DNA of 64,000 nt from assembly GCF_054482595.1 (NCBI RefSeq), contig NZ_CM137008.1; one strand, written 5' to 3'. The position numbers were made by a program, and so were the translations under genes. The notes under the pieces were generated by a model. The model was not told where the DNA came from and searched no databases. It saw nothing but the letters and a program-made list of their open reading frames with translations. Of the stretch, positions 2,492-40,891 are shown one piece after another; the stretch's first letter is position 1; every line of letters begins with the position of its first letter.

Positions 2492-2750
2492 GTGGTTTGT
2501 CCCCTTTTTGCCGCGGTTATAAAGGGGATAGCCAACAATAACCCCACGACTCATCTCAATTATCTCGTCACGACCAGGCAAAGCCCCAGCCCGGTCTCTT
2601 GCCGTCGCGTTCACGCCTGAATGACTTCTCCTGAACTTAAGTCTCAGACCTATTTGGCCGGTAATCCCTCTCAAATTTGCTCCTTTTGCGTTCAGCCTTC
2701 CATCAACCTGTAACAGAACCAGCCATTTTCTGCGTAATTGTGATCTGAGT

Positions 2751-2782
2751 TGTAAAACGCAGATCATTATCTGTGTTTTACA
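2751..2782. promoter_or_regulatory. 32-bp near-perfect palindrome (tgtaaaacgcagatca / ttatctgtgttttaca) about 80 bp upstream of ydjL; candidate operator
   Basis: 14 of 16 positions are self-complementary; outer 8-bp arms TGTAAAAC/GTTTTACA are perfect. No flanking T-run, so unlikely to be a terminator. Confidence 0.4.
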
Positions 2783-2860
2783 GATTTAATGTTGACCTCA
2801 AAAATCATGTGGGTAAGTATGATGACCATCTAAGCAAAACAAAACACAGAGGATGACGCA

Positions 2861-3937
2861 ATGAAAGCACTGGCTCGGTTTGGCAAAGCCTTTGGCGGCT
2901 ACAAGATGATTGATGTCCCACAACCCATGTGTGGCCCGGAAGATGTAGTGATTGAAATTAAAGCCGCGGCAATCTGCGGCGCAGACATGAAGCACTACAA
3001 TGTCGATAGCGGTTCTGATGAGTTTAACTCTATCCGCGGCCATGAGTTCGCAGGTTGTATTGCGCAGGTTGGTGAAAAAGTCAAAGACTGGAAAGTGGGG
3101 CAACGCGTCGTATCGGATAACAGCGGTCACGTTTGCGGCGTTTGTCCGGCCTGTGAACAAGGTGATTTTCTGTGTTGTACAGAAAAAGTAAACCTTGGTC
3201 TGGATAATAATACCTGGGGCGGTGGTTTTTCCAAATATTGTCTGGTTCCTGGTGAAATTCTCAAAATTCATCGTCATGCGTTGTGGGAAATCCCTGATGG
3301 TGTTGATTATGAGGACGCAGCCGTACTTGACCCTATCTGTAATGCCTACAAATCCATCGCGCAGCAATCGAAATTCCTTCCTGGTCAGGATGTGGTCGTC
3401 ATCGGCACTGGCCCACTCGGGCTGTTCTCCGTACAAATGGCGCGAATTATGGGGGCGGTAAATATCGTCGTCGTTGGTCTGCAAGAAGATGTGGCGGTCC
3501 GCTTCCCGGTTGCAAAAGAACTGGGTGCGACGGCAGTAGTAAATGGTTCTACCGAAGATGTGGTGGCGCGCTGCCAGCAAATTTGTGGCAAAGACAATCT
3601 GGGACTGGTGATTGAATGCTCCGGTGCCAATATCGCACTGAAACAAGCCATCGAAATGCTCCGCCCGAACGGGGAAGTTGTACGCGTTGGAATGGGCTTC
3701 AAACCTCTTGATTTCTCGATTAATGACATTACCGCCTGGAACAAAAGCATCATTGGGCATATGGCCTATGACTCCACCTCATGGCGTAACGCTATCAGGC
3801 TATTAGCCAGCGGCGCTATCAAAGTCAAACCGATGATCACGCATCGTATCGGCCTGTCGCAATGGCGCGAAGGGTTTGATGCGATGGTCGATAAAACCGC
3901 AATCAAAGTGATCATGACTTACGACTTTGATGAATAA
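2861..3937 (+). CDS. ydjL: Zn-dependent medium-chain alcohol/polyol dehydrogenase YdjL
   Basis: 358-aa ORF with GHEFAGCI zinc-ADH motif, Cys-rich structural zinc site (CGVCPACEQGDFLCC) and GTGPLG Rossmann motif. Confidence 0.9.
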   Translation: MKALARFGKAFGGYKMIDVPQPMCGPEDVVIEIKAAAICGADMKHYNVDSGSDEFNSIRGHEFAGCIAQVGEKVKDWKVGQRVVSDNSGHVCGVCPACEQGDFLCCTEKVNLGLDNNTWGGGFSKYCLVPGEILKIHRHALWEIPDGVDYEDAAVLDPICNAYKSIAQQSKFLPGQDVVVIGTGPLGLFSVQMARIMGAVNIVVVGLQEDVAVRFPVAKELGATAVVNGSTEDVVARCQQICGKDNLGLVIECSGANIALKQAIEMLRPNGEVVRVGMGFKPLDFSINDITAWNKSIIGHMAYDSTSWRNAIRLLASGAIKVKPMITHRIGLSQWREGFDAMVDKTAIKVIMTYDFDE

Positions 3938-3963
3938 CCACTCTCCTGAAGGAACGTTATCGC

Positions 3964-5343
3964 ATGGAACAGATAACAAAACCGCATTGTGGTGCACGGC
4001 TGGATCGCTTACCGGATTGCCGCTGGCATTCATCAATGTTTGCCATCGTCGCGTTTGGCTTGCTTGTCTGCTGGAGTAATGCCGTTGGTGGCTTGATCCT
4101 CGCGCAGCTGAAAGCGTTGGGCTGGACAGATAATTCCACCACAGCCACATTCTCAGCAATCACGACCGCCGGAATGTTTCTCGGTGCGCTGGTGGGCGGC
4201 ATCATTGGCGACAAAACCGGTCGCAGAAATGCGTTCATCCTCTATGAGGCCATTCATATTGCCTCGATGGTTGTCGGTGCTTTCTCACCGAATATGGATT
4301 TCCTTATTGCCTGCCGTTTTGTGATGGGAGTTGGGCTGGGAGCTTTACTGGTTACGCTGTTTGCTGGTTTCACCGAATATATGCCCGGTAGAAATCGTGG
4401 AACGTGGTCAAGTCGGGTTTCCTTTATTGGCAACTGGTCATATCCGCTCTGTTCATTGATAGCGATGGGACTCACGCCGCTGATTAGTGCAGAGTGGAAC
4501 TGGCGGGTACAACTGCTTATCCCTGCAATATTGTCGCTTATCGCTACGGCGCTGGCCTGGCGCTACTTTCCTGAATCCCCGCGCTGGCTGGAATCGCGCG
4601 GACGGTATCAGGAAGCCGAGAAAGTCATGCGGAGTATAGAAGAAGGCGTCATACGCCAGACAGGTAAACCTTTGCCGCCCGTGGTTATTGCTGATGACGG
4701 TAAAGCACCACAAGCGGTGCCATATTCAGCCTTACTGACAGGAGTATTACTGAAACGCGTGATATTAGGCTCTTGTGTGCTGATTGCCATGAACGTTGTG
4801 CAGTACACACTAATTAACTGGTTGCCAACGATATTCATGACCCAGGGGATTAATTTAAAAGACTCGATTGTTTTAAATACCATGAGTATGTTTGGCGCGC
4901 CATTTGGCATTTTTATTGCCATGCTGGTGATGGATAAAATTCCGCGTAAAACAATGGGTGTGGGGCTATTAATCCTGATTGCGGTGCTCGGATATATCTA
5001 TTCACTGCAAACCAGCATGTTGCTCATAACGTTGATTGGTTTCTTCCTGATTACTTTCGTCTATATGTACGTTTGCTATGCCTCGGCAGTGTATGTCCCT
5101 GAGATCTGGCCGACAGAGGCCAAACTCCGTGGCTCCGGTCTGGCGAATGCGGTAGGGCGAATCAGTGGTATTGCCGCACCTTATGCCGTTGCAGTGCTGC
5201 TCAGTAGTTATGGCGTTACGGGAGTCTTTATTCTTCTGGGGGCGGTTTCAATTATTGTCGCAATTGCTATCGCCACCATTGGAATCGAAACCAAAGGTGT
5301 CTCCGTTGAAAGTTTAAGTATTGATGCAGTAGCCAATAAATAA
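3964..5343 (+). CDS. ydjK: MFS-family transporter YdjK (sugar-porter-like)
   Basis: 459-aa hydrophobic ORF with MFS signature GDKTGRRNA after TM2 and a repeated 6+6 TM layout; starts 27 bp after ydjL. Confidence 0.88.
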   Translation: MEQITKPHCGARLDRLPDCRWHSSMFAIVAFGLLVCWSNAVGGLILAQLKALGWTDNSTTATFSAITTAGMFLGALVGGIIGDKTGRRNAFILYEAIHIASMVVGAFSPNMDFLIACRFVMGVGLGALLVTLFAGFTEYMPGRNRGTWSSRVSFIGNWSYPLCSLIAMGLTPLISAEWNWRVQLLIPAILSLIATALAWRYFPESPRWLESRGRYQEAEKVMRSIEEGVIRQTGKPLPPVVIADDGKAPQAVPYSALLTGVLLKRVILGSCVLIAMNVVQYTLINWLPTIFMTQGINLKDSIVLNTMSMFGAPFGIFIAMLVMDKIPRKTMGVGLLILIAVLGYIYSLQTSMLLITLIGFFLITFVYMYVCYASAVYVPEIWPTEAKLRGSGLANAVGRISGIAAPYAVAVLLSSYGVTGVFILLGAVSIIVAIAIATIGIETKGVSVESLSIDAVANK

Positions 5344-5359
5344 TACGGGTGGATTCAAA

Positions 5360-6403
5360 ATGAAAAATTCAAAAGCAATATTGCAGGTGCCGGGCACAAT
5401 GAAAATTATTTCAGCAGAAATACCAGTGCCTAAAGAAGATGAAGTTTTGATTAAAGTAGAATATGTCGGTATTTGTGGTTCAGATGTACATGGTTTTGAA
5501 TCAGGTCCGTTTATTCCGCCTAAAGACCCAAATCAAGAAATTGGCCTGGGTCATGAATGCGCCGGGACGGTTGTGGCTGTGGGAAGCCGCGTGCGCAAAT
5601 TTAAACCGGGGGATCGGGTAAATATCGAACCTGGCGTTCCTTGCGGTCACTGTCGTTACTGTCTGGAAGGCAAATATAACATCTGCCCGGACGTTGATTT
5701 TATGGCGACACAACCCAACTACCGCGGCGCATTAACGCACTATCTGTGTCATCCGGAGAGCTTTACTTACAAACTGCCCGACAATATGGACACGATGGAA
5801 GGGGCGCTGGTGGAGCCTGCCGCAGTCGGGATGCATGCCGCGATGCTGGCAGATGTTAAACCGGGTAAGAAGATAATTATTCTGGGAGCGGGTTGTATTG
5901 GTTTGATGACGTTGCAAGCGTGCAAATGCCTGGGAGCAACGGAAATTGCCGTCGTTGATGTGCTGGAAAAACGTCTGACAATGGCGGAACAGCTTGGTGC
6001 GACAGTGGTTATTAACGGCGCAAAAGAAGACACTATTGCACGCTGTCAGCAATTTACCGAAGACATGGGCGCAGATATTGTTTTCGAAACAGCGGGTTCT
6101 GCGGTCACCGTTAAACAGGCACCTTATCTGGTAATGCGCGGCGGTAAAATTATGATTGTTGGTACTGTACCCGGCGATTCGGCAATCAATTTCCTCAAAA
6201 TCAATCGCGAAGTCACTATCCAGACGGTATTCCGCTATGCCAATCGTTATCCGGTCACGATTGAAGCTATTTCTTCAGGGCGATTCGATGTGAAATCGAT
6301 GGTGACACATATTTACGATTACCGTGATGTACAACAGGCATTTGAAGAGTCGGTTAACAACAAACGCGACATTATTAAAGGCGTTATTAAGATTAGCGAT
6401 TAA
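5360..6403 (+). CDS. ydjJ: Zn-dependent alcohol/polyol dehydrogenase YdjJ
   Basis: 347-aa ORF; GHECAGTV zinc-ADH motif, CGHCRYCLEGKYNIC structural zinc site, GAGCIG Rossmann motif. Confidence 0.9.
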   Translation: MKNSKAILQVPGTMKIISAEIPVPKEDEVLIKVEYVGICGSDVHGFESGPFIPPKDPNQEIGLGHECAGTVVAVGSRVRKFKPGDRVNIEPGVPCGHCRYCLEGKYNICPDVDFMATQPNYRGALTHYLCHPESFTYKLPDNMDTMEGALVEPAAVGMHAAMLADVKPGKKIIILGAGCIGLMTLQACKCLGATEIAVVDVLEKRLTMAEQLGATVVINGAKEDTIARCQQFTEDMGADIVFETAGSAVTVKQAPYLVMRGGKIMIVGTVPGDSAINFLKINREVTIQTVFRYANRYPVTIEAISSGRFDVKSMVTHIYDYRDVQQAFEESVNNKRDIIKGVIKISD

Positions 6404-6423
6404 TTAATACGGGAGAACAGAAC

Positions 6424-7260
6424 ATGCTCGCAGATATCAGATATTGGGAAAACGATGCCACAAATAAACGTTATGCTATTGCCCATTTTAATGTATGGAA
6501 TGCAGAAATGTTGATGGGCGTTATCGACGCAGCCGAAGAAGCGAAATCACCGGTTATTATTTCTTTTGGCACAGGTTTTGTCGGCAACACCTCATTTGAA
6601 GATTTCTCTCACATGATGGTATCAATGGCACAAAAAGCAACGGTGCCGGTAATAACTCATTGGGATCATGGTCGGAGTATGGAGATTATTCATAACGCCT
6701 GGGCTCATGGTATGAATTCATTAATGCGTGATGCTTCCGCATTTGATTTCGAAGAAAATATTCGCTTAACCAAAGAGGCTGTCGATTTCTTCCATCCGCT
6801 GGGTATTCCGGTAGAGGCGGAATTAGGGCATGTCGGTAATGAAACCGTTTATGAGGAAGCGCTGGCGGGCTATCACTATACCGATCCTGACCAGGCGGCT
6901 GAATTTGTTGAACGTACGGGCTGTGACTCATTGGCTGTCGCCATCGGCAACCAGCATGGGGTTTATACGTCAGAGCCACAATTGAACTTTGAGGTCGTCA
7001 AACGCGTACGCGATGCCGTGTCTGTTCCGCTGGTTTTGCATGGCGCATCGGGGATCAGTGATGCCGACATTAAAACTGCAATTTCGTTGGGTATCGCGAA
7101 AATCAACATCCATACGGAGCTCTGTCAGGCCGCAATGGTCGCAGTGAAAGAAAACCAGGATCAGCCTTTCCTGCATTTAGAACGTGAAGTACGTAAAGCT
7201 GTAAAAGAACGGGCATTGGAAAAAATTAAACTGTTCGGTTCTGATGGCAAAGCGGAATAA
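6424..7260 (+). CDS. ydjI: Class II ketose-bisphosphate aldolase family protein YdjI
   Basis: 278-aa ORF recognised as a GatY/KbaY/FbaA-like class II aldolase (HxDH and His-rich metal site). Confidence 0.88.
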   Translation: MLADIRYWENDATNKRYAIAHFNVWNAEMLMGVIDAAEEAKSPVIISFGTGFVGNTSFEDFSHMMVSMAQKATVPVITHWDHGRSMEIIHNAWAHGMNSLMRDASAFDFEENIRLTKEAVDFFHPLGIPVEAELGHVGNETVYEEALAGYHYTDPDQAAEFVERTGCDSLAVAIGNQHGVYTSEPQLNFEVVKRVRDAVSVPLVLHGASGISDADIKTAISLGIAKINIHTELCQAAMVAVKENQDQPFLHLEREVRKAVKERALEKIKLFGSDGKAE

Positions 7261-7264
7261 TGAT

Positions 7265-8212
7265 ATGGATAATCTCGACGTTATTTGTATAGGTGCCGCT
7301 ATTGTTGATATTCCATTGCAACCGGTCAGTAAAAATATCTTTGATGTGGATTCTTATCCTCTTGAAAGAATCGCAATGACCACCGGGGGTGATGCAATAA
7401 ATGAAGCAACAATTATTTCTCGTCTGGGCCATCGTACAGCATTAATGAGGCGTGTTGGTAAAGATGCCGCAGGACAATTTATTCTCGACCATTGCCGCAA
7501 AGAGAATATTGATATTCAAAGCCTGAAACAGGACGTCAGCATAGATACCTCTATTAATGTTGGACTGGTGACGGAGGATGGCGAGCGGACGTTTGTCACA
7601 AACCGTAACGGCAGTCTGTGGAAATTGAATATTGACGATGTTGATTTTGCTCGGTTTTCCCAGGCAAAATTATTATCACTGGCCAGTATTTTCAACAGTC
7701 CACTATTGGATGGTAAAGCGCTAACAGAAATTTTTACGCAAGCTAAAGCCCGGCAGATGATTATCTGTGCCGATATGATCAAACCGCGGTTGAATGAAAC
7801 GCTGGATGATATTTGCGAAGCATTGAGTTATGTCGATTATCTGTTTCCTAATTATGCCGAGGCAAAATTACTCACCGGGAAAGAGACACTGGATGAAATT
7901 GCTGACTGCTTTCTTGCGTGCGGCGTAAAAACGGTGGTGATTAAAACGGGTAAAGACGGCTGCTTTATCAAGCGTGGTGACATGACGATGAAGGTGCCGG
8001 CGGTCGCAGGAATAACCGCCATCGACACCATTGGCGCGGGCGATAACTTTGCTTCAGGTTTTATTGCGGCACTGTTAGAAGGCAAAAATCTGCGTGAATG
8101 CGCACGCTTTGCCAATGCAACGGCGGCTATCTCGGTTCTAAGCGTCGGTGCCACCACCGGCGTAAAAAACAGAAAGCTGGTCGAACAATTGCTGGAAGAA
8201 TACGAAGGATAA
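7265..8212 (+). CDS. ydjH: PfkB-family carbohydrate kinase YdjH
   Basis: ORF 7244-8212; start placed at MDNLDVICIGAAIVD (315 aa); C-terminal GAGDNFASGF ribokinase/PfkB motif. Confidence 0.88.
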   Translation: MDNLDVICIGAAIVDIPLQPVSKNIFDVDSYPLERIAMTTGGDAINEATIISRLGHRTALMRRVGKDAAGQFILDHCRKENIDIQSLKQDVSIDTSINVGLVTEDGERTFVTNRNGSLWKLNIDDVDFARFSQAKLLSLASIFNSPLLDGKALTEIFTQAKARQMIICADMIKPRLNETLDDICEALSYVDYLFPNYAEAKLLTGKETLDEIADCFLACGVKTVVIKTGKDGCFIKRGDMTMKVPAVAGITAIDTIGAGDNFASGFIAALLEGKNLRECARFANATAAISVLSVGATTGVKNRKLVEQLLEEYEG

Positions 8213-8221
8213 TGAAGGCAA

Positions 8222-9202
8222 ATGAAAAAGATACCTTTAGGCACAACGGATATTACGCTTTCGCGAATGGGGTTGGGGACATGGGCCATTGGCGGCGGTC
8301 CTGCATGGAATGGCGATCTCGATCGGCAAATATGTATTGATACGATTCTTGAAGCCCATCGTTGCGGCATTAATCTGATTGATACTGCACCAGGATATAA
8401 TTTTGGCAATAGTGAAGTTATCGTCGGTCAGGCGTTAAAAAAACTGCCCCGTGAACAGGTTGTAGTAGAAACCAAATGCGGCATTGTCTGGGAACGAAAA
8501 GGAAGTTTATTCAACAAAGTTGGCGATCGGCAGTTGTATAAAAACCTTTCCCCGGAATCTATCCGCGAAGAGGTAGAAGCCAGCTTGCAACGTCTGGGTA
8601 TTGATTACATCGATATCTACATGACGCACTGGCAGTCGGTGCCGCCATTTTATACGCCGATCGCTGAAACTGTCGCAGTGCTTAATGAGTTAAAGGCTGA
8701 AGGGAAAATTCGCGCTATAGGCGCTGCTAACGTCGATGCCGACCATATCCGCGAGTATCTGCAATATGGTGAACTGGATATTATTCAGGCGAAATACAGT
8801 ATCCTCGACCGGGCAATGGAAAACGAACTGCTGCCGCTATGTCGTGATAATGGCATTGTGGTTCAGGTTTATTCCCCGCTAGAGCAGGGATTGTTGACCG
8901 GCACCATCACTCGTGATTACGTTCCGGGCGGCGCTCGGGCAAATAAAGTCTGGTTCCAGCGTGAAAACATGCTGAAAGTGATTGATATGCTTGAACAGTG
9001 GCAGCCACTTTGTGCTCGATATCAGTGCACAATTCCCACTCTGGCACTGGCGTGGATATTAAAACAGAGTGATTTAATCTCCATTCTTAGTGGGGCTACT
9101 GCACCGGAACAGGTACGCGAAAATGTCGCAGCACTGAATATCAACTTATCGGATGCAGACGCAACATTGATGAGGGAAATGGCAGAGGCCCTGGAGCGTT
9201 AA
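8222..9202 (+). CDS. ydjG: Aldo-keto reductase YdjG
   Basis: 326-aa ORF with AKR fold hallmarks (IDTAPGY, catalytic tetrad context); starts 10 bp after ydjH. Confidence 0.88.
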   Translation: MKKIPLGTTDITLSRMGLGTWAIGGGPAWNGDLDRQICIDTILEAHRCGINLIDTAPGYNFGNSEVIVGQALKKLPREQVVVETKCGIVWERKGSLFNKVGDRQLYKNLSPESIREEVEASLQRLGIDYIDIYMTHWQSVPPFYTPIAETVAVLNELKAEGKIRAIGAANVDADHIREYLQYGELDIIQAKYSILDRAMENELLPLCRDNGIVVQVYSPLEQGLLTGTITRDYVPGGARANKVWFQRENMLKVIDMLEQWQPLCARYQCTIPTLALAWILKQSDLISILSGATAPEQVRENVAALNINLSDADATLMREMAEALER

Positions 9203-9228
9203 ATACTCAACACGATTCACCTCTGTTT

Positions 9229-9256
9229 CTGTGAAAACTGTGATGAAAATCTGTGA
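9229..9256. promoter_or_regulatory. Three direct CTGTGA repeats (starts 9229, 9238, 9251) upstream of ydjF; candidate operator or CRP half-sites
   Basis: Read directly: ctgtgaaaa / ctgtgatgaaaat / ctgtgattcaaa, between the ydjG stop and the ydjF GTG start. Confidence 0.3.
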
Positions 9257-9338
9257 TTCAAACAGGTTATTTTGAAAGTAAACATCGGTTATGCGATAAT
9301 CGCGCTAATGTGATGTAAAAAGATACAGGGGTGTAATC

Positions 9339-10097
9339 GTGGCGGCAAAAGACAGGATTCAGGCAATTAAGCAAATGGTTGCCAACGATAAAAAGGTGAC
9401 AGTCTCAAATTTGAGTGGGATTTTTCAGGTAACCGAAGAAACCATTCGCCGCGATCTTGAGAAGCTGGAAGATGAAGGCTTTTTGACCAGAACCTATGGT
9501 GGTGCTGTTTTAAATACAGCGATGTTGACGGAGAATATCCATTTTTATAAGCGCGCTTCATCGTTTTATGAAGAGAAGCAGCTTATTGCACGCAAGGCAC
9601 TACCCTTTATCGACAATAAAACCACCATGGCAGCCGATTCCAGTAGTACCGTAATGGAATTGCTCAAATTGTTACAGGACCGTAGTGACCTGACGTTGCT
9701 AACCAACTCGGCGGAAGCGATTCATGTTCTGGCTCAGTCAGAAATTAAAGTCGTTTCAACGGGTGGGGAACTAAACAAAAATACACTTTCACTGCAAGGA
9801 AGAATTACTAAAGAGATCATCAGCCGCTACCATGTCGATATCATGGTAATGAGTTGTAAAGGTCTTGATATTAACAGCGGCGCGCTGGACTCTAATGAAG
9901 CGGAAGCTGAAATCAAAAAGACAATGATCCGTCAGGCGACAGAAGTTGCGTTATTGGTTGATCACTCTAAGTTTGATCGCAAAGCTTTTGTCCAGTTAGC
10001 TGACTTTAGTCATATTAATTACATAATAACTGATAAATCACCGGGTGCAGAGTGGATAGCATTTTGCAAAGACAATAATATCCAGCTGGTGTGGTAA
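9339..10097 (+). CDS. ydjF: DeoR-family transcriptional regulator YdjF (GTG start)
   Basis: 252-aa ORF; N-terminal HTH (TVSNLSGIFQVTEETIRRDLEKLE) and DeoR C-terminal sugar-phosphate-binding domain; initiation codon is GTG. Confidence 0.88.
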   Translation: MAAKDRIQAIKQMVANDKKVTVSNLSGIFQVTEETIRRDLEKLEDEGFLTRTYGGAVLNTAMLTENIHFYKRASSFYEEKQLIARKALPFIDNKTTMAADSSSTVMELLKLLQDRSDLTLLTNSAEAIHVLAQSEIKVVSTGGELNKNTLSLQGRITKEIISRYHVDIMVMSCKGLDINSGALDSNEAEAEIKKTMIRQATEVALLVDHSKFDRKAFVQLADFSHINYIITDKSPGAEWIAFCKDNNIQLVW

Positions 10098-10214
10098 TTT
10101 AAGCACACGTTGTCAATATTATTTGTTCCTGCGCCTGGAAATAAAATGATGATAAAGATGCGGCAAGTGAATTTGCCGCAATTGCTACCTTTTTTAGCAA
10201 ATCCGAGGCACCCA

Positions 10215-11573
10215 ATGGAACAATATGATCAAATTGGCGCAAGACTGGACCGCTTGCCTTTGGCCCGGTTTCATTATCGTATATTTGGTATTATAAGCTT
10301 TAGTCTGTTATTAACAGGGTTTTTGAGTTACTCCGGTAATGTCGTCTTAGCAAAGCTGGTAAGCAATGGATGGTCAAATAATTTCCTCAATGCCGCCTTT
10401 ACCTCGGCATTAATGTTTGGTTATTTCATCGGCTCTCTTACCGGTGGGTTCATCGGTGATTACTTTGGGCGGCGCAGGGCGTTTCGCATAAATCTTCTCA
10501 TCGTCGGTATTGCTGCAACAGGGGCCGCTTTTGTCCCTGATATGTACTGGCTCATCTTCTTTCGCTTCCTGATGGGAACAGGAATGGGGGCGCTGATTAT
10601 GGTTGGCTATGCCTCATTTACGGAGTTTATCCCCGCGACGGTGCGTGGAAAATGGTCCGCGCGGCTCTCATTTGTTGGTAACTGGTCGCCCATGCTGTCT
10701 GCGGCGATAGGTGTGGTGGTTATCGCTTTTTTTAGTTGGCGGATAATGTTTCTGCTGGGTGGTATTGGCATACTGTTAGCCTGGTTTCTTTCAGGTAAAT
10801 ACTTTATTGAGTCGCCACGATGGCTGGCAGGGAAAGGGCAAATCGCAGGTGCAGAAAGCCAACTTCGTGAAGTAGAGCAGCAAATTGAAAGAGAGAAGAG
10901 TATTCGTTTACCCCCGCTTACTTCGTATCAGAGCAACAGCAAGGTTAAAGTAATCAAGGGTACTTTCTGGCTCCTGTTTAAAGGTGAAATGTTACGACGT
11001 ACATTAGTCGCGATTACTGTTTTAATTGCAATGAACATTTCGCTTTATACCATCACCGTATGGATACCGACCATATTTGTTAACTCCGGCATTGATGTCG
11101 ATAAATCAATATTAATGACCGCTGTTATTATGATTGGCGCTCCGGTAGGAATATTTATTGCGGCATTAATTATTGATCATTTTCCTCGTCGGTTATTTGG
11201 CTCCACCTTACTTATTATTATTGCCGTGTTAGGCTATATCTATTCAATTCAGACTACAGAGTGGGCGATTTTAATCTATGGCCTGGTGATGATATTCTTT
11301 TTATACATGTATGTTTGCTTCGCGTCGGCGGTTTATATCCCGGAGCTTTGGCCAACGCATTTACGCCTGCGCGGTTCGGGTTTCGTTAATGCCGTCGGAC
11401 GGATCGTCGCAGTCTTCACGCCCTATGGCGTTGCGGCATTATTAACACATTATGGGTCGATCACGGTGTTTATGGTACTTGGTGTCATGTTATTGCTCTG
11501 TGCGCTGGTTCTCTCCATTTTTGGCATCGAAACGCGAAAGGTGTCGTTGGAAGAGATTTCTGAGGTGAATTAA
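10215..11573 (+). CDS. ydjE: MFS-family transporter YdjE
   Basis: ORF 10110-11573; start placed at MEQYDQIGARLDRL (452 aa); GDYFGRRRA MFS motif; paralogous in layout to YdjK. Confidence 0.85.
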   Translation: MEQYDQIGARLDRLPLARFHYRIFGIISFSLLLTGFLSYSGNVVLAKLVSNGWSNNFLNAAFTSALMFGYFIGSLTGGFIGDYFGRRRAFRINLLIVGIAATGAAFVPDMYWLIFFRFLMGTGMGALIMVGYASFTEFIPATVRGKWSARLSFVGNWSPMLSAAIGVVVIAFFSWRIMFLLGGIGILLAWFLSGKYFIESPRWLAGKGQIAGAESQLREVEQQIEREKSIRLPPLTSYQSNSKVKVIKGTFWLLFKGEMLRRTLVAITVLIAMNISLYTITVWIPTIFVNSGIDVDKSILMTAVIMIGAPVGIFIAALIIDHFPRRLFGSTLLIIIAVLGYIYSIQTTEWAILIYGLVMIFFLYMYVCFASAVYIPELWPTHLRLRGSGFVNAVGRIVAVFTPYGVAALLTHYGSITVFMVLGVMLLLCALVLSIFGIETRKVSLEEISEVN

Positions 11574-11665
11574 ATCTTTCGTTGATGGCATCAATTGCCA
11601 GATGTGCCACTGACGTGTTTTATTTGGCCTACAATGCCAGTACAGAATTGTAGGCCAGCGTAAAA

Positions 11666-12307
11666 TTACCCCTGCGTCTCTTCCCAGTCTGCCAGCGTAT
11701 ATAGCGTTGCCCCAGCTGCTGACATCTCCATAAACGCGTGCGCACTGTCCTGGGGCTGGATATTCACGCCACGACAACCATCGGTAATCACGTTTACCTT
11801 ATAACCTAACTGTAACGCGTCCAGCACGGTAAACTTCACGCAATAGTCAGTAGCCAGGCCCATAACGATCAATTCATCGATTTCATGATCGCGTAACCAG
11901 TCATCGAGAGAGGTTTTCTGCCGACGGCCGTTATCAAAAAAGGCACTGTAACTGTCAACTAAAGGATTTTCGCCTTTATGGAACACCGCTGCGATCGCTT
12001 TTTGGTTCAGTAACGGATGTAATTGTGCGCCTTCACTGTTCTGCACACAGTGATCTGGCCAGAAGGTTTGTGGCAAACCGTCGAGTTGGCCTGGCGTATA
12101 AGGCTCTACACCGTGCTGGCTGGCAAAACTGCCGTGATTCGCCGGGTGCCAGTCCTGACTGGCGATAACCGCTTCACCGCGCGACTGGCACCAGTCAATC
12201 AGGCGGTTAGCGACATCCACCGTACTGTCACCTTCCGGCACGGCGAGCGCGCCACCAGCACAGAAATCATTTTGTAAATCGACCAGTAACAGGGCGCGAG
12301 GGGGCAT
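11666..12307 (-). CDS. pncA: Nicotinamidase / pyrazinamidase
   Basis: Isochorismatase-fold ORF (LLLVDLQNDFC; catalytic Cys in DYCVKFT); start placed at MPPRALLL (213 aa). Confidence 0.9.
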   Translation of the reverse strand: MPPRALLLVDLQNDFCAGGALAVPEGDSTVDVANRLIDWCQSRGEAVIASQDWHPANHGSFASQHGVEPYTPGQLDGLPQTFWPDHCVQNSEGAQLHPLLNQKAIAAVFHKGENPLVDSYSAFFDNGRRQKTSLDDWLRDHEIDELIVMGLATDYCVKFTVLDALQLGYKVNVITDGCRGVNIQPQDSAHAFMEMSAAGATLYTLADWEETQG

Positions 12308-20361: not shown

Positions 20362-20457
20362 TTGCCGGGGGCGCTGCGCTTGCCCGGCCTACATTAGAGC
20401 GTAACTGCAATGAATTGTGCCCATTTGTAGGCCTGATAAGCGTAGCGCCATCAGGCA
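20362..20457. repeat. Pair of REP (repetitive extragenic palindromic) units, BIME-like, between convergent ynjI and gdhA
   Basis: ttgccgggggcgctgcgcttgcccggcctaca and tgtaggcctgataagcgtagcgccatcaggca match the enterobacterial REP consensus (GCCTGATGCGACGCT.../CCGGCCTAC). Confidence 0.8.
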
Positions 20458-20465
20458 TTTACAAC

Positions 20466-21809
20466 TTAAATCACACCCTGCGCCAGCATCGCATCGGCAA
20501 CCTTCACAAAACCGGCAATGTTCGCGCCCTGCACGTAGTTGGTTTGCTCACCTTCACCACCATGCTCAACACAGGCATGGTGGATATCCAGCATGATGTG
20601 ATGCAAACGTGCGTCAACTTTCTCGGCTTTCCAGCCCAGGCGCGCAGCGTTTTGTGCCATTTCCAGGCCTGACGTTGCTACACCGCCAGCATTAGCCGCT
20701 TTACCCGGTGCAAACAGTACGCCTGCCTGCTGGAACAGTTCAGTCGCTTCGATGGTGGTCGGCATATTTGCCCCTTCGGCGACGGCTTTAACGCCATTGG
20801 CGATAAGCTGATGCGCGGCGTCAACATCCAGTTCGTTCTGGGTAGCGCAAGGCAGGGCGATATCAACCGGTACAGACCACGGCTGTTGGCCTTCGAGATA
20901 GACCAGACCAAATTCTTTGGCGTAATCTGCCACTCGACCATCGCGGCTGGCTTTGATTTCGATAAGACGTGCCAGTTTCTCTTTCGTGAATCCGCTTTCA
21001 TCAACTACAGTGCCGCTGGAGTCTGACGCAGTGATCACACGAGCACCAAATTCCATCGCTTTTTCGATAGCGTACTGGGCGACGTTGCCGGAGCCAGAAA
21101 CGGAAACGCGCATCCCTTCAAAACCCATACCGTGGCGTTTTAGCATTGCTTCTGTGAAATAAACCAGACCGTAGCCGGTAGCTTCCGGGCGAATAAGACT
21201 GCCGCCAAATGAAAGGCCCTTACCGGTGAAGACGCAGGCGGTATTGTTGGAGAGCTTTTTCATCATCCCCGCCATAAAGCCGACTTCACGACCACCAACC
21301 CCGATATCACCTGCCGGAACGTCGGTATCCGCGCCCAGGTGGCGATACAGTTCAGTCATCAGCGCCTGGCAAAAACGCATCACTTCACCTTCGCTTTTTC
21401 CTTTCGGATCGAAATCGCTGCCGCCTTTACCACCGCCCATCGGCAGAGTAGTCAGGGCATTTTTGAAGGTTTGTTCAAAGCCGAGGAATTTGAGAATGGA
21501 AAGGTTAACTGACGGATGGAAGCGCATACCGCCTTTGTACGGGCCGATGGCAGAGCTGAACTGCACACGCCATGCACGGTTGACCTGTACCTGATTGCGA
21601 TCATCAACCCATACCACGCGAAACTGGATCACGCGCTCCGGTTCAACCAGACGCTCCAGTAATGACATCTGGCGATATTTTGGATTTTGTTCAAGAAAAG
21701 GCCAGAGTGTGGTCATTACTTCACGAACGGCTTGCGCGAACTCGGTTTGATTCGGGTCGCGCTTTTGGACATGGTTGAGGAATGACTCCAGAGAATATGT
21801 CTGATCCAT
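20466..21809 (-). CDS. gdhA: NADP-specific glutamate dehydrogenase
   Basis: 447-aa ORF with GDH signature LPMGGGKGGSDFDPKGKS and C-terminal NAD(P) Rossmann domain. Confidence 0.95.
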   Translation of the reverse strand: MDQTYSLESFLNHVQKRDPNQTEFAQAVREVMTTLWPFLEQNPKYRQMSLLERLVEPERVIQFRVVWVDDRNQVQVNRAWRVQFSSAIGPYKGGMRFHPSVNLSILKFLGFEQTFKNALTTLPMGGGKGGSDFDPKGKSEGEVMRFCQALMTELYRHLGADTDVPAGDIGVGGREVGFMAGMMKKLSNNTACVFTGKGLSFGGSLIRPEATGYGLVYFTEAMLKRHGMGFEGMRVSVSGSGNVAQYAIEKAMEFGARVITASDSSGTVVDESGFTKEKLARLIEIKASRDGRVADYAKEFGLVYLEGQQPWSVPVDIALPCATQNELDVDAAHQLIANGVKAVAEGANMPTTIEATELFQQAGVLFAPGKAANAGGVATSGLEMAQNAARLGWKAEKVDARLHHIMLDIHHACVEHGGEGEQTNYVQGANIAGFVKVADAMLAQGVI

Positions 21810-38263: not shown

Positions 38264-38300
38264 TACCCGCAGAAATCATTCTGCGGGTATTAAGTTACTT
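38264..38300 (+). terminator. Hairpin terminator after astE (tacccgcagaa / ttctgcgggta)
   Basis: 11-bp perfect stem immediately after the astE stop, followed by a moderately T-rich tract. Confidence 0.5.
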
Positions 38301-40847: not shown

Positions 40848-40891
40848 TTGTAGGTCGAACAAGGCGTTCACGCCGCATCCGGCGTGAACAA
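40848..40891. repeat. REP element between nadE and cho (…cacgccgcatccggcgtgaac… hairpin)
   Basis: The reverse strand reads GCCGGATGCGGCGTGAACGCCTTGTTCGACCTACA, close to the REP consensus GCCGGATGCGGCGTGAACGCCTTATCCGGCCTACA. Confidence 0.7.

Follow-up and report, generated by a model that had tools for sequence, protein, structure and literature searches.

The 33-nt palindrome located between the convergent genes ydjE and pncA, at positions 11625-11657 of the 64,000-nt stretch of DNA analyzed here (referred to as the window), is very probably the inner GTAG-to-GTAG, i.e., tail-to-tail, junction of an ancient and decayed REP dimer (BIME) downstream of pncA, as judged from comparison of its arms and flanks with REP sequences. 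An apparent orphan palindrome is thereby explained as an unrecognized, eroded REP dimer, and such REP remnants slip past simple REP or terminator scans; overall, this represents ordinary E. coli intergenic repeat biology. By analogy with REP elements, the hairpin probably still caps the 3′ ends of two converging mRNAs, and the combination of a decayed-REP-dimer identity with a mechanism that blocks exonucleases is considered, with moderate confidence, to be the best explanation as a whole.

The sequence ggcctacaat/gccagtacaga/attgtaggcc, which the original prediction had placed at 11626-11656 as a perfect 10-bp stem between convergent ydjE and pncA, is found in the sequence at exactly these positions, and the gene coordinates bear out its placement: ydjE (10215-11573, + strand) is the last gene of the ydjLKJIHGFE cluster, while the nicotinamidase gene pncA (11666-12307, - strand) is the last gene of ansA-pncA, whose transcript runs into the hairpin. 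The pairing is indeed perfect, though the stem is longer than predicted: a perfect-stem scan showed that T11625 and A11657 also pair, which results in a palindrome (11625-11657, both strands) with a perfect 11-bp stem, TGGCCTACAAT / ATTGTAGGCCA, and an 11-nt loop, corresponding to K-12 coordinates 1852537-1852569. Transcripts of either strand form this same hairpin, with RNA folds of -16.2 kcal/mol (+) and -17.0 kcal/mol (-) and a z-score of about -4.5 relative to dinucleotide shuffles. In the 64-kb window, perfect stems of 10 bp or longer (loop 3-15) number five when counted as distinct, this one included, and 10 with nested hits included, for which dinucleotide shuffles average 0.93. Between the convergent genes, the hairpin is the only strong symmetric stem-loop, in haplotypes with and without the ydj cluster alike.

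For comparison with REP elements, reference REPs were taken from a 50-kb K-12 segment, from which consensus sequences were derived for Z2 (GTAGGCCTGATAAGACGCGTCAGCGTCGCATCAGGCA) and Y (GTAGGCCGGATAAGGCGTTTACGCCGCATCCGGCA). The two arms of the hairpin, GGCCTAC and GTAGGCC, consist of a GTAG tag plus GCC and are identical to the tags of real K-12 REPs, with GTAGGCC being read at 11626-11632 on the - strand and at 11650-11656 on the + strand. The frequencies of such words in the window are at chance level (the arm 10-mer occurs 4 times versus 3.8 expected, and the GTAGGCC 7-mer 5 times versus 7.5 expected), and since word counts alone are insufficient, an in-register match of the REP body is needed for REP membership. 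Such a match exists on the left side, where a degenerate Z2-type REP occupies 11596-11632 (- strand; GTAGGCCAAATAAAACACGTCAGTGGCACATCTGGCA when read from its GTAG tag) and its GTAGGCC end constitutes the left arm of the hairpin. The body of this unit matches the K-12 Z2 consensus at 22/30 positions, in register with GTAGGCC (binomial 3.8e-8); among all 30-mers on the two strands of 114 kb, only the true REPs score higher, and the background does not exceed 20. The 37-nt unit including its tag matches real Z2 copies at 29/37. The corresponding body matches at 24/30 in Escherichia sp. E1V33, a representative of a cryptic clade, and at 18-19/30 in ydj-less haplotypes. The hairpin had been described as isolated, a view that does not hold, given that its left arm is the end of this degenerate REP. 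The stem-loop of the relic itself retains a REP-like fold on the + strand by means of G-U pairs (-11.6 kcal/mol, z -2.5) and is near background on the - strand (-8.6 kcal/mol, z -1.1); real REP copies fold at -19 to -22 kcal/mol. Two further structures are predicted in the same region, i.e., a second hairpin in the 3′ UTR of ydjE (11580-11615), which coincides in part with the distal half of the relic, in competition with its REP-like fold, and a + strand alternative in which the T-rich half of the relic lengthens the main stem, with UUUUA pairing to UAAAA.

On the right side, the arm is formed by an orphan GTAG-tagged end, GTAGGCCA (11650-11657, + strand), and the body of an inverted partner REP is absent: the sequence that follows this arm matches the consensus at just 6-10/30 positions in all nine sequences examined, and it contains no hairpin body (-1.8 kcal/mol). 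The body consensus is therefore one that the left unit matches and the right unit does not. Because the second body is absent from these nine sequences, the element is filed as a dimer remnant and not as a tail-to-tail dimer, and with the partner body missing in every sampled lineage, its former existence is something that we infer. Between the two tagged ends lies a 17-nt spacer, aatgccagtacagaatt (11633-11649), whose complementary ends, AAT and ATT, provide the inner 3 bp of the stem. Both the orientation of the tags and the length of this spacer fit those of real dimers, in which spacers of 14, 15 and 34 nt are found; for example, Z2 and Y copies of K-12 face each other at malE-malF and lamB-malM, with their GTAG ends 15 and 14 nt apart, respectively. 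Di Nocera et al. term the GTAG end of a REP its ‘tail’ and dimers with GTAG inside ‘TT’ dimers, which are frequent in the enterobacterial GTAG-3 family; these authors also describe REP-dimer spacers with complementary ends and singletons that are often dimer remnants. The window itself harbors a genuine REP dimer at 20364-20470 (gdhA-ynjI intergenic region, K-12 coordinates), GGCCTAC-attagagcgtaactgcaatgaattgtgcccattt-GTAGGCC, with the GTAG ends inside and a 34-nt spacer. Both of its bodies fold, at -13.5 to -15.5 kcal/mol, and this dimer served as an internal positive control. In addition, a Y-type REP with the variant tag GTAGGTC (ttGTAGGTCGAACAAGGCGTTCACGCCGCATCCGGCG) is located at approximately 40848-40890, the core of which is a perfect 10-bp hairpin at 40866-40889.

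The element thus resembles REP/BIME sequences (GTAG-3, Z2, TT dimers) in carrying tags plus GCC on both arms, in their inverted orientation, in its extragenic position between convergent genes, in its spacer length, and in that the same slot holds full dimers in other genera. It differs from them in that its sole recognizable body is degraded and has a weak stem, its partner is bodyless and the 33-nt hairpin is single-copy, while the stable hairpin is built by two tags and a spacer and not by a REP palindrome. REPs are multi-copy elements, whereas this hairpin occurs once per genome in 4,328 ydj-plus and 1,090 ydj-less genomes; its membership of the REP family is consequently derived from the similarity of the relic to a multi-copy consensus and not from repetition of the relic itself. 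A degenerate REP-like element had been one of the options in the original prediction, which counted a lack of sequence family membership among its grounds for refutation. The Z2 body match establishes such a membership, and the option can now be specified: the arms would be the GTAG-tagged ends of a decayed TT dimer of which one body is recognizable (22-24/30) and the other is missing. The hairpin as a whole, for which a search elsewhere in the genome had also been proposed, is single-copy. An Rfam match to naRNA4, which is REP325-derived, was obtained at 11563-11629 (22 bits, E = 0.09); it is sub-threshold and was dropped as REP evidence, as the genuine BIME at 20364-20470 has no naRNA4 match. 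A search of Rfam with the hairpin yielded mir-2796 at 24 bits, which is likewise sub-threshold.

The hairpin was found in 5,418 of 5,426 E. coli genomes, both ydj-plus and ydj-less, and always as a single copy. Three alleles predominate, i.e., the exact K-12-type 33-mer (3,744 genomes), the same sequence with one loop SNP (554 genomes) and the exact ydj-less allele (1,087 genomes). In the latter, the element reads GGCCTACAAT-12 nt-ATGTAGGCC (L001, 2954-2986), with loop and flanks having diverged and the REP relic being present. The only clearly disrupted allele seen is that of E. coli CP131_Sichuan (NZ_CP053720.1, 1978506-1978831), where an IS1 end adjoins ...CAATGCCAGTACAGAATTGTAGGCCA and the left arm and leftward sequence are replaced by IS1. 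The element is also carried by two cryptic-clade genomes, one with ydj (L005) and one without (L007), and is missing from Escherichia albertii, in which the first ~80 nt after the pncA stop codon consist of unrelated sequence. The E. albertii slot contains a hairpin followed by a T-run (cagacttaatttagcaccggatataaattaagtctgttttttt), indicating that a conventional terminator fills the position that is taken by the REP remnant in E. coli.

Outside Escherichia, full REP dimers with a GGCCTAC-spacer-GTAGGCC core occupy the same post-pncA slot in Lelliottia, several Enterobacter species and others, and a half-deleted partner is present at this locus in one Lelliottia sequence (L012). In Citrobacter sp. 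On2M, a long post-pncA hairpin, agCCTACAGATTTGC-gcatttc-TGCAAATCTGTAGGcc (L032, 3167-3202; about -24 kcal/mol), is composed of GTAG-tagged ends (GCCTAC...GTAGGC) and a self-complementary spacer, with no recognizable REP body on either side. On these features, the On2M hairpin may be a second, independent body-less junction, and the forms of E. coli, Lelliottia, Enterobacter and Citrobacter look like stages of one decay.

The element is positioned at the edge of a large presence/absence polymorphism. The ydjLKJIHGFE cluster, about 9.1 kb in length (~2503-11595, from the yeaC stop codon to the edge of the relic), is located between yeaC and pncA in 4,323-4,328 of the 5,426 complete E. coli genomes and is absent in 1,090 (about 20%), where the distance between yeaC and pncA is 160 bp. 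Of the intergenic sequence in ydj-less strains, about 85-95 nt is without counterpart in ydj-carrying strains. Among 80 Enterobacterales species, the ancestral order is that of ansA-pncA convergent with yeaC, and the inserted cargo differs by lineage; adjacency of pncA and ydjE is also encountered in some Citrobacter, in Klebsiella spallanzanii and in Yokenella. The pncA-side edge of the variable segment, as defined by haplotype homology, falls at 11574-11595, and homology between ydj-plus and ydj-less haplotypes begins at the outer border of the REP relic, from which it follows that the hairpin lies just outside the variable segment and is older than the polymorphism. Being situated at the fixed edge of a common 9-kb polymorphism, the element supplies pncA with the same 3′ structure whichever gene converges on it. 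The hairpin and pncA are intact in E. coli O157:H7 Sakai (NC_002695.2), the annotation of which gives ydjE as a pseudogene 5′-truncated beside a copy of IS1203 (IS3 family).

The coincidence of the ydj boundary with the outer edge of the relic, together with the genus-dependent cargo in the pncA-yeaC gap, would suit a role at the DNA level, in which the palindrome or relic is a candidate protein-binding or recombination site (for TnpA_REP/RAYT, gyrase, IHF or HU) that marks the boundary of ydj gain and loss. Conservation of both arms at the sequence level, as expected of a dyad-symmetric site, and the fact that GTAG is a base-specific determinant for TnpA_REP point in the same direction. The determinants of TnpA_REP are, however, single-stranded GTAG followed by a REP stem with a conserved bulge, with cleavage at flanking CT, and the E. 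coli enzyme requires this GTAG and bulged stem on single-stranded DNA, whereas the tag at this locus is an orphan without a body and the stem of the relic is degraded. Furthermore, the other boundary of the island (yeaC-ydjL) shows no REP-like sequence, the best match being 17/37, and the hairpin is not a junction product, given that both haplotypes share it and the variable segment does not include it. A role of this type is accordingly regarded as quite improbable, and the protein-binding site that had been offered as an option in the original prediction found no support, as the hairpin itself does not possess the TnpA_REP determinants.

The gap between the hairpin and the pncA stop codon (11658-11665, - strand), as seen in the alignment and in the downstream sequences, also differs between lineages. 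An 11-nt deletion in this gap distinguishes the E. coli lineages with ydj from all other Escherichia lineages, such that the distance from the pncA stop codon to GGCCTAC is 9 nt in ydj-carrying E. coli and 20 nt elsewhere in Escherichia (L001, 2987-3005; L005; L007). As a result of the deletion, the stem falls within the region covered by a ribosome that terminates at the stop codon. REPs that lie up to about 15 nt from a stop codon reportedly lower protein output, and one may envisage a translation-coupled control of pncA, in which the terminating ribosome must melt a stem located 8-9 nt after the stop codon, thereby lowering PncA output. The shorter distance in K-12-type strains is consistent with such control, but conservation of the hairpin is no weaker in the other lineages, where the distance is 20 nt, and this is therefore not its general role, and a literature search turned up no pncA data; there is accordingly little reason to expect that this control operates.

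The conservation of the hairpin is concentrated in its tags. Across four deep lineages, the 16 positions of T-GGCCTAC / GTAGGCC-A are invariant, while 25 of 45 other alignable non-coding positions vary among the same lineages, with pairwise differences of 24-44%. Invariant positions therefore amount to 16/16 in the tags versus 20/45 elsewhere (Fisher p = 3.6e-5), in a comparison of related lineages whose alignment was anchored on the conserved arms. The loop and inner stem pairs differ between lineages. No covariation was observed in the stem, of which 9 of the 11 pairs never vary; one of the two varying pairs changes from A-U to G-U, which is a valid pair on the + strand only, and the other is a mismatch. 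The tags are conserved at the sequence level, and the data fit selection for pairing or selection for sequence alike.

These data bear directly on the reading that the hairpin is a neutral relic, i.e., a decayed REP dimer without present function whose hairpin persists through short time or chance. Decay of the adjoining REP body (18-24/30 to the consensus, depending on the lineage), the lack of covariation and of a mapped 3′ end, the tolerance of one strain for IS1 in the left arm, and the complete absence of the element from E. albertii are all in keeping with neutrality. It is nevertheless considered unlikely: adjacent positions, REP body included, differ by 24-44% between lineages in which none of the 16 tag positions varies (p = 3.6e-5), the arms are intact in at least 5,385 of the 5,418 genomes, and E. 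albertii, which is without the element, has another stem-loop with a T-run in the slot. Since the GTAG-tagged ends are far better kept than the adjoining REP body, the locus lends itself to testing which part of a REP dimer is selected, and why. It is conceivable, though we hold it to be rather doubtful, that once the REP bodies had eroded, the tags and spacer were kept by selection as a symmetric, U-tract-less stem-loop in its own right, serving both converging transcripts. A tail-to-tail unit selected in this manner might, with similar reservation, block exonucleases or serve as a point at which polymerases pause or collide. If this were true, selection on a BIME could act on its tail-to-tail junction and not on the REP palindromes, and the hairpin of Citrobacter sp. 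On2M would be a second, independent example.

With regard to transcript ends, the sequence 3′ of the stem is AAATAAAAC in the pncA sense and AGCGTAAAAT in the ydjE sense, neither of which contains a T-run, and a scan of both strands detected no terminator-like or promoter-like sites at the locus. The original prediction had noted that there is no T-run on either side of the hairpin. This is not literally so, as the T-rich run GTGTTTTATTT (11614-11624, + strand), a decayed remnant of the REP body's 3′ half (consensus GCGTCTTATCA), adjoins the left arm; as this run precedes the stem on the + strand and, on the - strand, follows it as a run of A, it provides no terminator U-tract in either direction, and the conclusion that the hairpin is not a canonical intrinsic terminator is upheld. 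The hairpin shares with intrinsic terminators a stable stem-loop downstream of a stop codon, while it differs from them in having no 3′ U-tract on either strand, its only T-run being 5′ of the stem on the + strand. A canonical Rho-independent terminator for pncA or ydjE, to which a GC-containing, stable stem-loop directly after two stop codons would conform, was ruled out, and hardly any credence is given to it, in view of the absence of a T-run 3′ of the stem on either strand, the negative scan and Rho-dependent read-through beyond the stem.

Evidence for the latter is found in the data of Adams et al. (2021), whose Supplementary file 2 lists, on the strand antisense to ydjE, a region of Rho termination at K-12 1852976 (+), with 42/18 reads in untreated cells and 57/99 reads with bicyclomycin (Rho score 4.05; p = 1.5e-5). 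This region is about 410 nt past the hairpin in the pncA sense, at a resolution within 800 nt, and the antisense-ydjE RNA could originate from an unmapped promoter instead of from pncA read-through. In both senses, the sequence downstream of the stem is C-rich and G-poor, with a C/G ratio of 1.4-1.9 (90th-97th percentile). The complete Term-seq lists of Adams et al., covering three conditions, hold no RNA 3′ ends at or near the hairpin (K-12 18524xx-18526xx) and no pncA or ydjE entries, and the TERMITe supplements hold no 3′ end for the locus; with expression as weak as 42 reads per 800 nt, the Term-seq negative has low power. The 3′-end mapping by Term-seq that had been proposed as a check of the original prediction thus lists none at this hairpin, in a locus of low expression. 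In a set of 80 species, a stable hairpin of whatever origin is contained in the 90 nt that follow the pncA stop codon, with a median of -17.1 kcal/mol versus -13.1 kcal/mol in coding controls (p = 2.8e-8).

Rho-dependent transcripts have been shown to end at stable, U-less stem-loops that block PNPase and RNase II, of which REPs are the classic case (Dar and Sorek 2018). The pncA hairpin is similar to these protective 3′ stem-loops, and to the REP stabilizers of Newbury et al. (1987), in being stable, devoid of a U-tract and located just after a stop codon, in having more C than G directly downstream, and in the presence of a Rho region a few hundred nucleotides further, in agreement with Rho dependence. 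It is unlike them in that their defining steady-state 3′ end is unmapped at this weakly expressed locus. By this analogy, we tentatively propose, at slightly under an even chance, that the hairpin, a 3′ stem-loop lacking a U-tract, blocks exonucleases in the manner of a REP. Erosion of the REP bodies would have left the tags and spacer as the sole strong stem-loop between the convergent units, i.e., ansA-pncA and ydjE, or ansA-pncA and msrB-yeaC in ydj-less strains. Without a U-tract, the hairpin alone would terminate transcription inefficiently, and RNA polymerase in the pncA sense would continue into antisense ydjE, where it would be stopped by Rho. The 3′-to-5′ exonucleases PNPase and RNase II would then trim the RNA back to the stem-loop, which would stabilize the 3′ end of the mRNA, as is the case for REPs and for the U-less stem-loops of Rho-dependent transcripts, and the opposite transcript would undergo the same trimming and stabilization. 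Among the roles that had initially been suggested, that of an RNA-stability determinant is therefore the most plausible by analogy with REPs and fits the Rho region, although no Term-seq 3′ end is listed for it.

A stem-loop shared by two converging units may also act through the polymerases themselves. Ju et al. (2019) reported bidirectional terminators at convergent gene pairs, explained by a model of RNAP collision and described as Rho-independent. A collision-type bidirectional terminator at the present locus would pause or position the converging polymerases, such that head-on collision ends transcription without a U-tract or Rho, the partners being pncA-sense and ydjE- or yeaC-sense polymerases. 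As in that class, a single symmetric stem-loop, which does not resemble an intrinsic terminator, is common to two converging units: it is strong, lies exactly between the convergent genes and has no U-tract. The read-through in LB, where ydj is presumably silent, is moreover what would be expected of a collision-dependent element. Both a terminator of this kind and the proposed pairs of colliding polymerases are nonetheless deemed improbable, since Rho dependence is seen downstream in the pncA sense, unlike in the Rho-independent class of Ju et al., and both partners are weakly expressed under the tested conditions.

A literature search for pncA plus ydjE retrieved one unrelated genome announcement and no publication on the element, and these coordinates do not appear in the supplementary REP catalogues of Di Nocera et al. 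The K-12 annotation table examined contains no REP features anywhere, malE-malF included, for which reason the missing REP label at this locus is uninformative; the element may already be annotated in EcoCyc or U00096.

Apart from the hairpins described above, the window has perfect stems of at least 10 bp at 38264-38289 and 53929-53958, and one at 363-390, aaaaagagcgac-CGAA-gtcgctcttttt, just 3′ of the gapA stop codon. The latter is flanked on both sides by A and T runs, on account of which it looks like a bidirectional intrinsic terminator.
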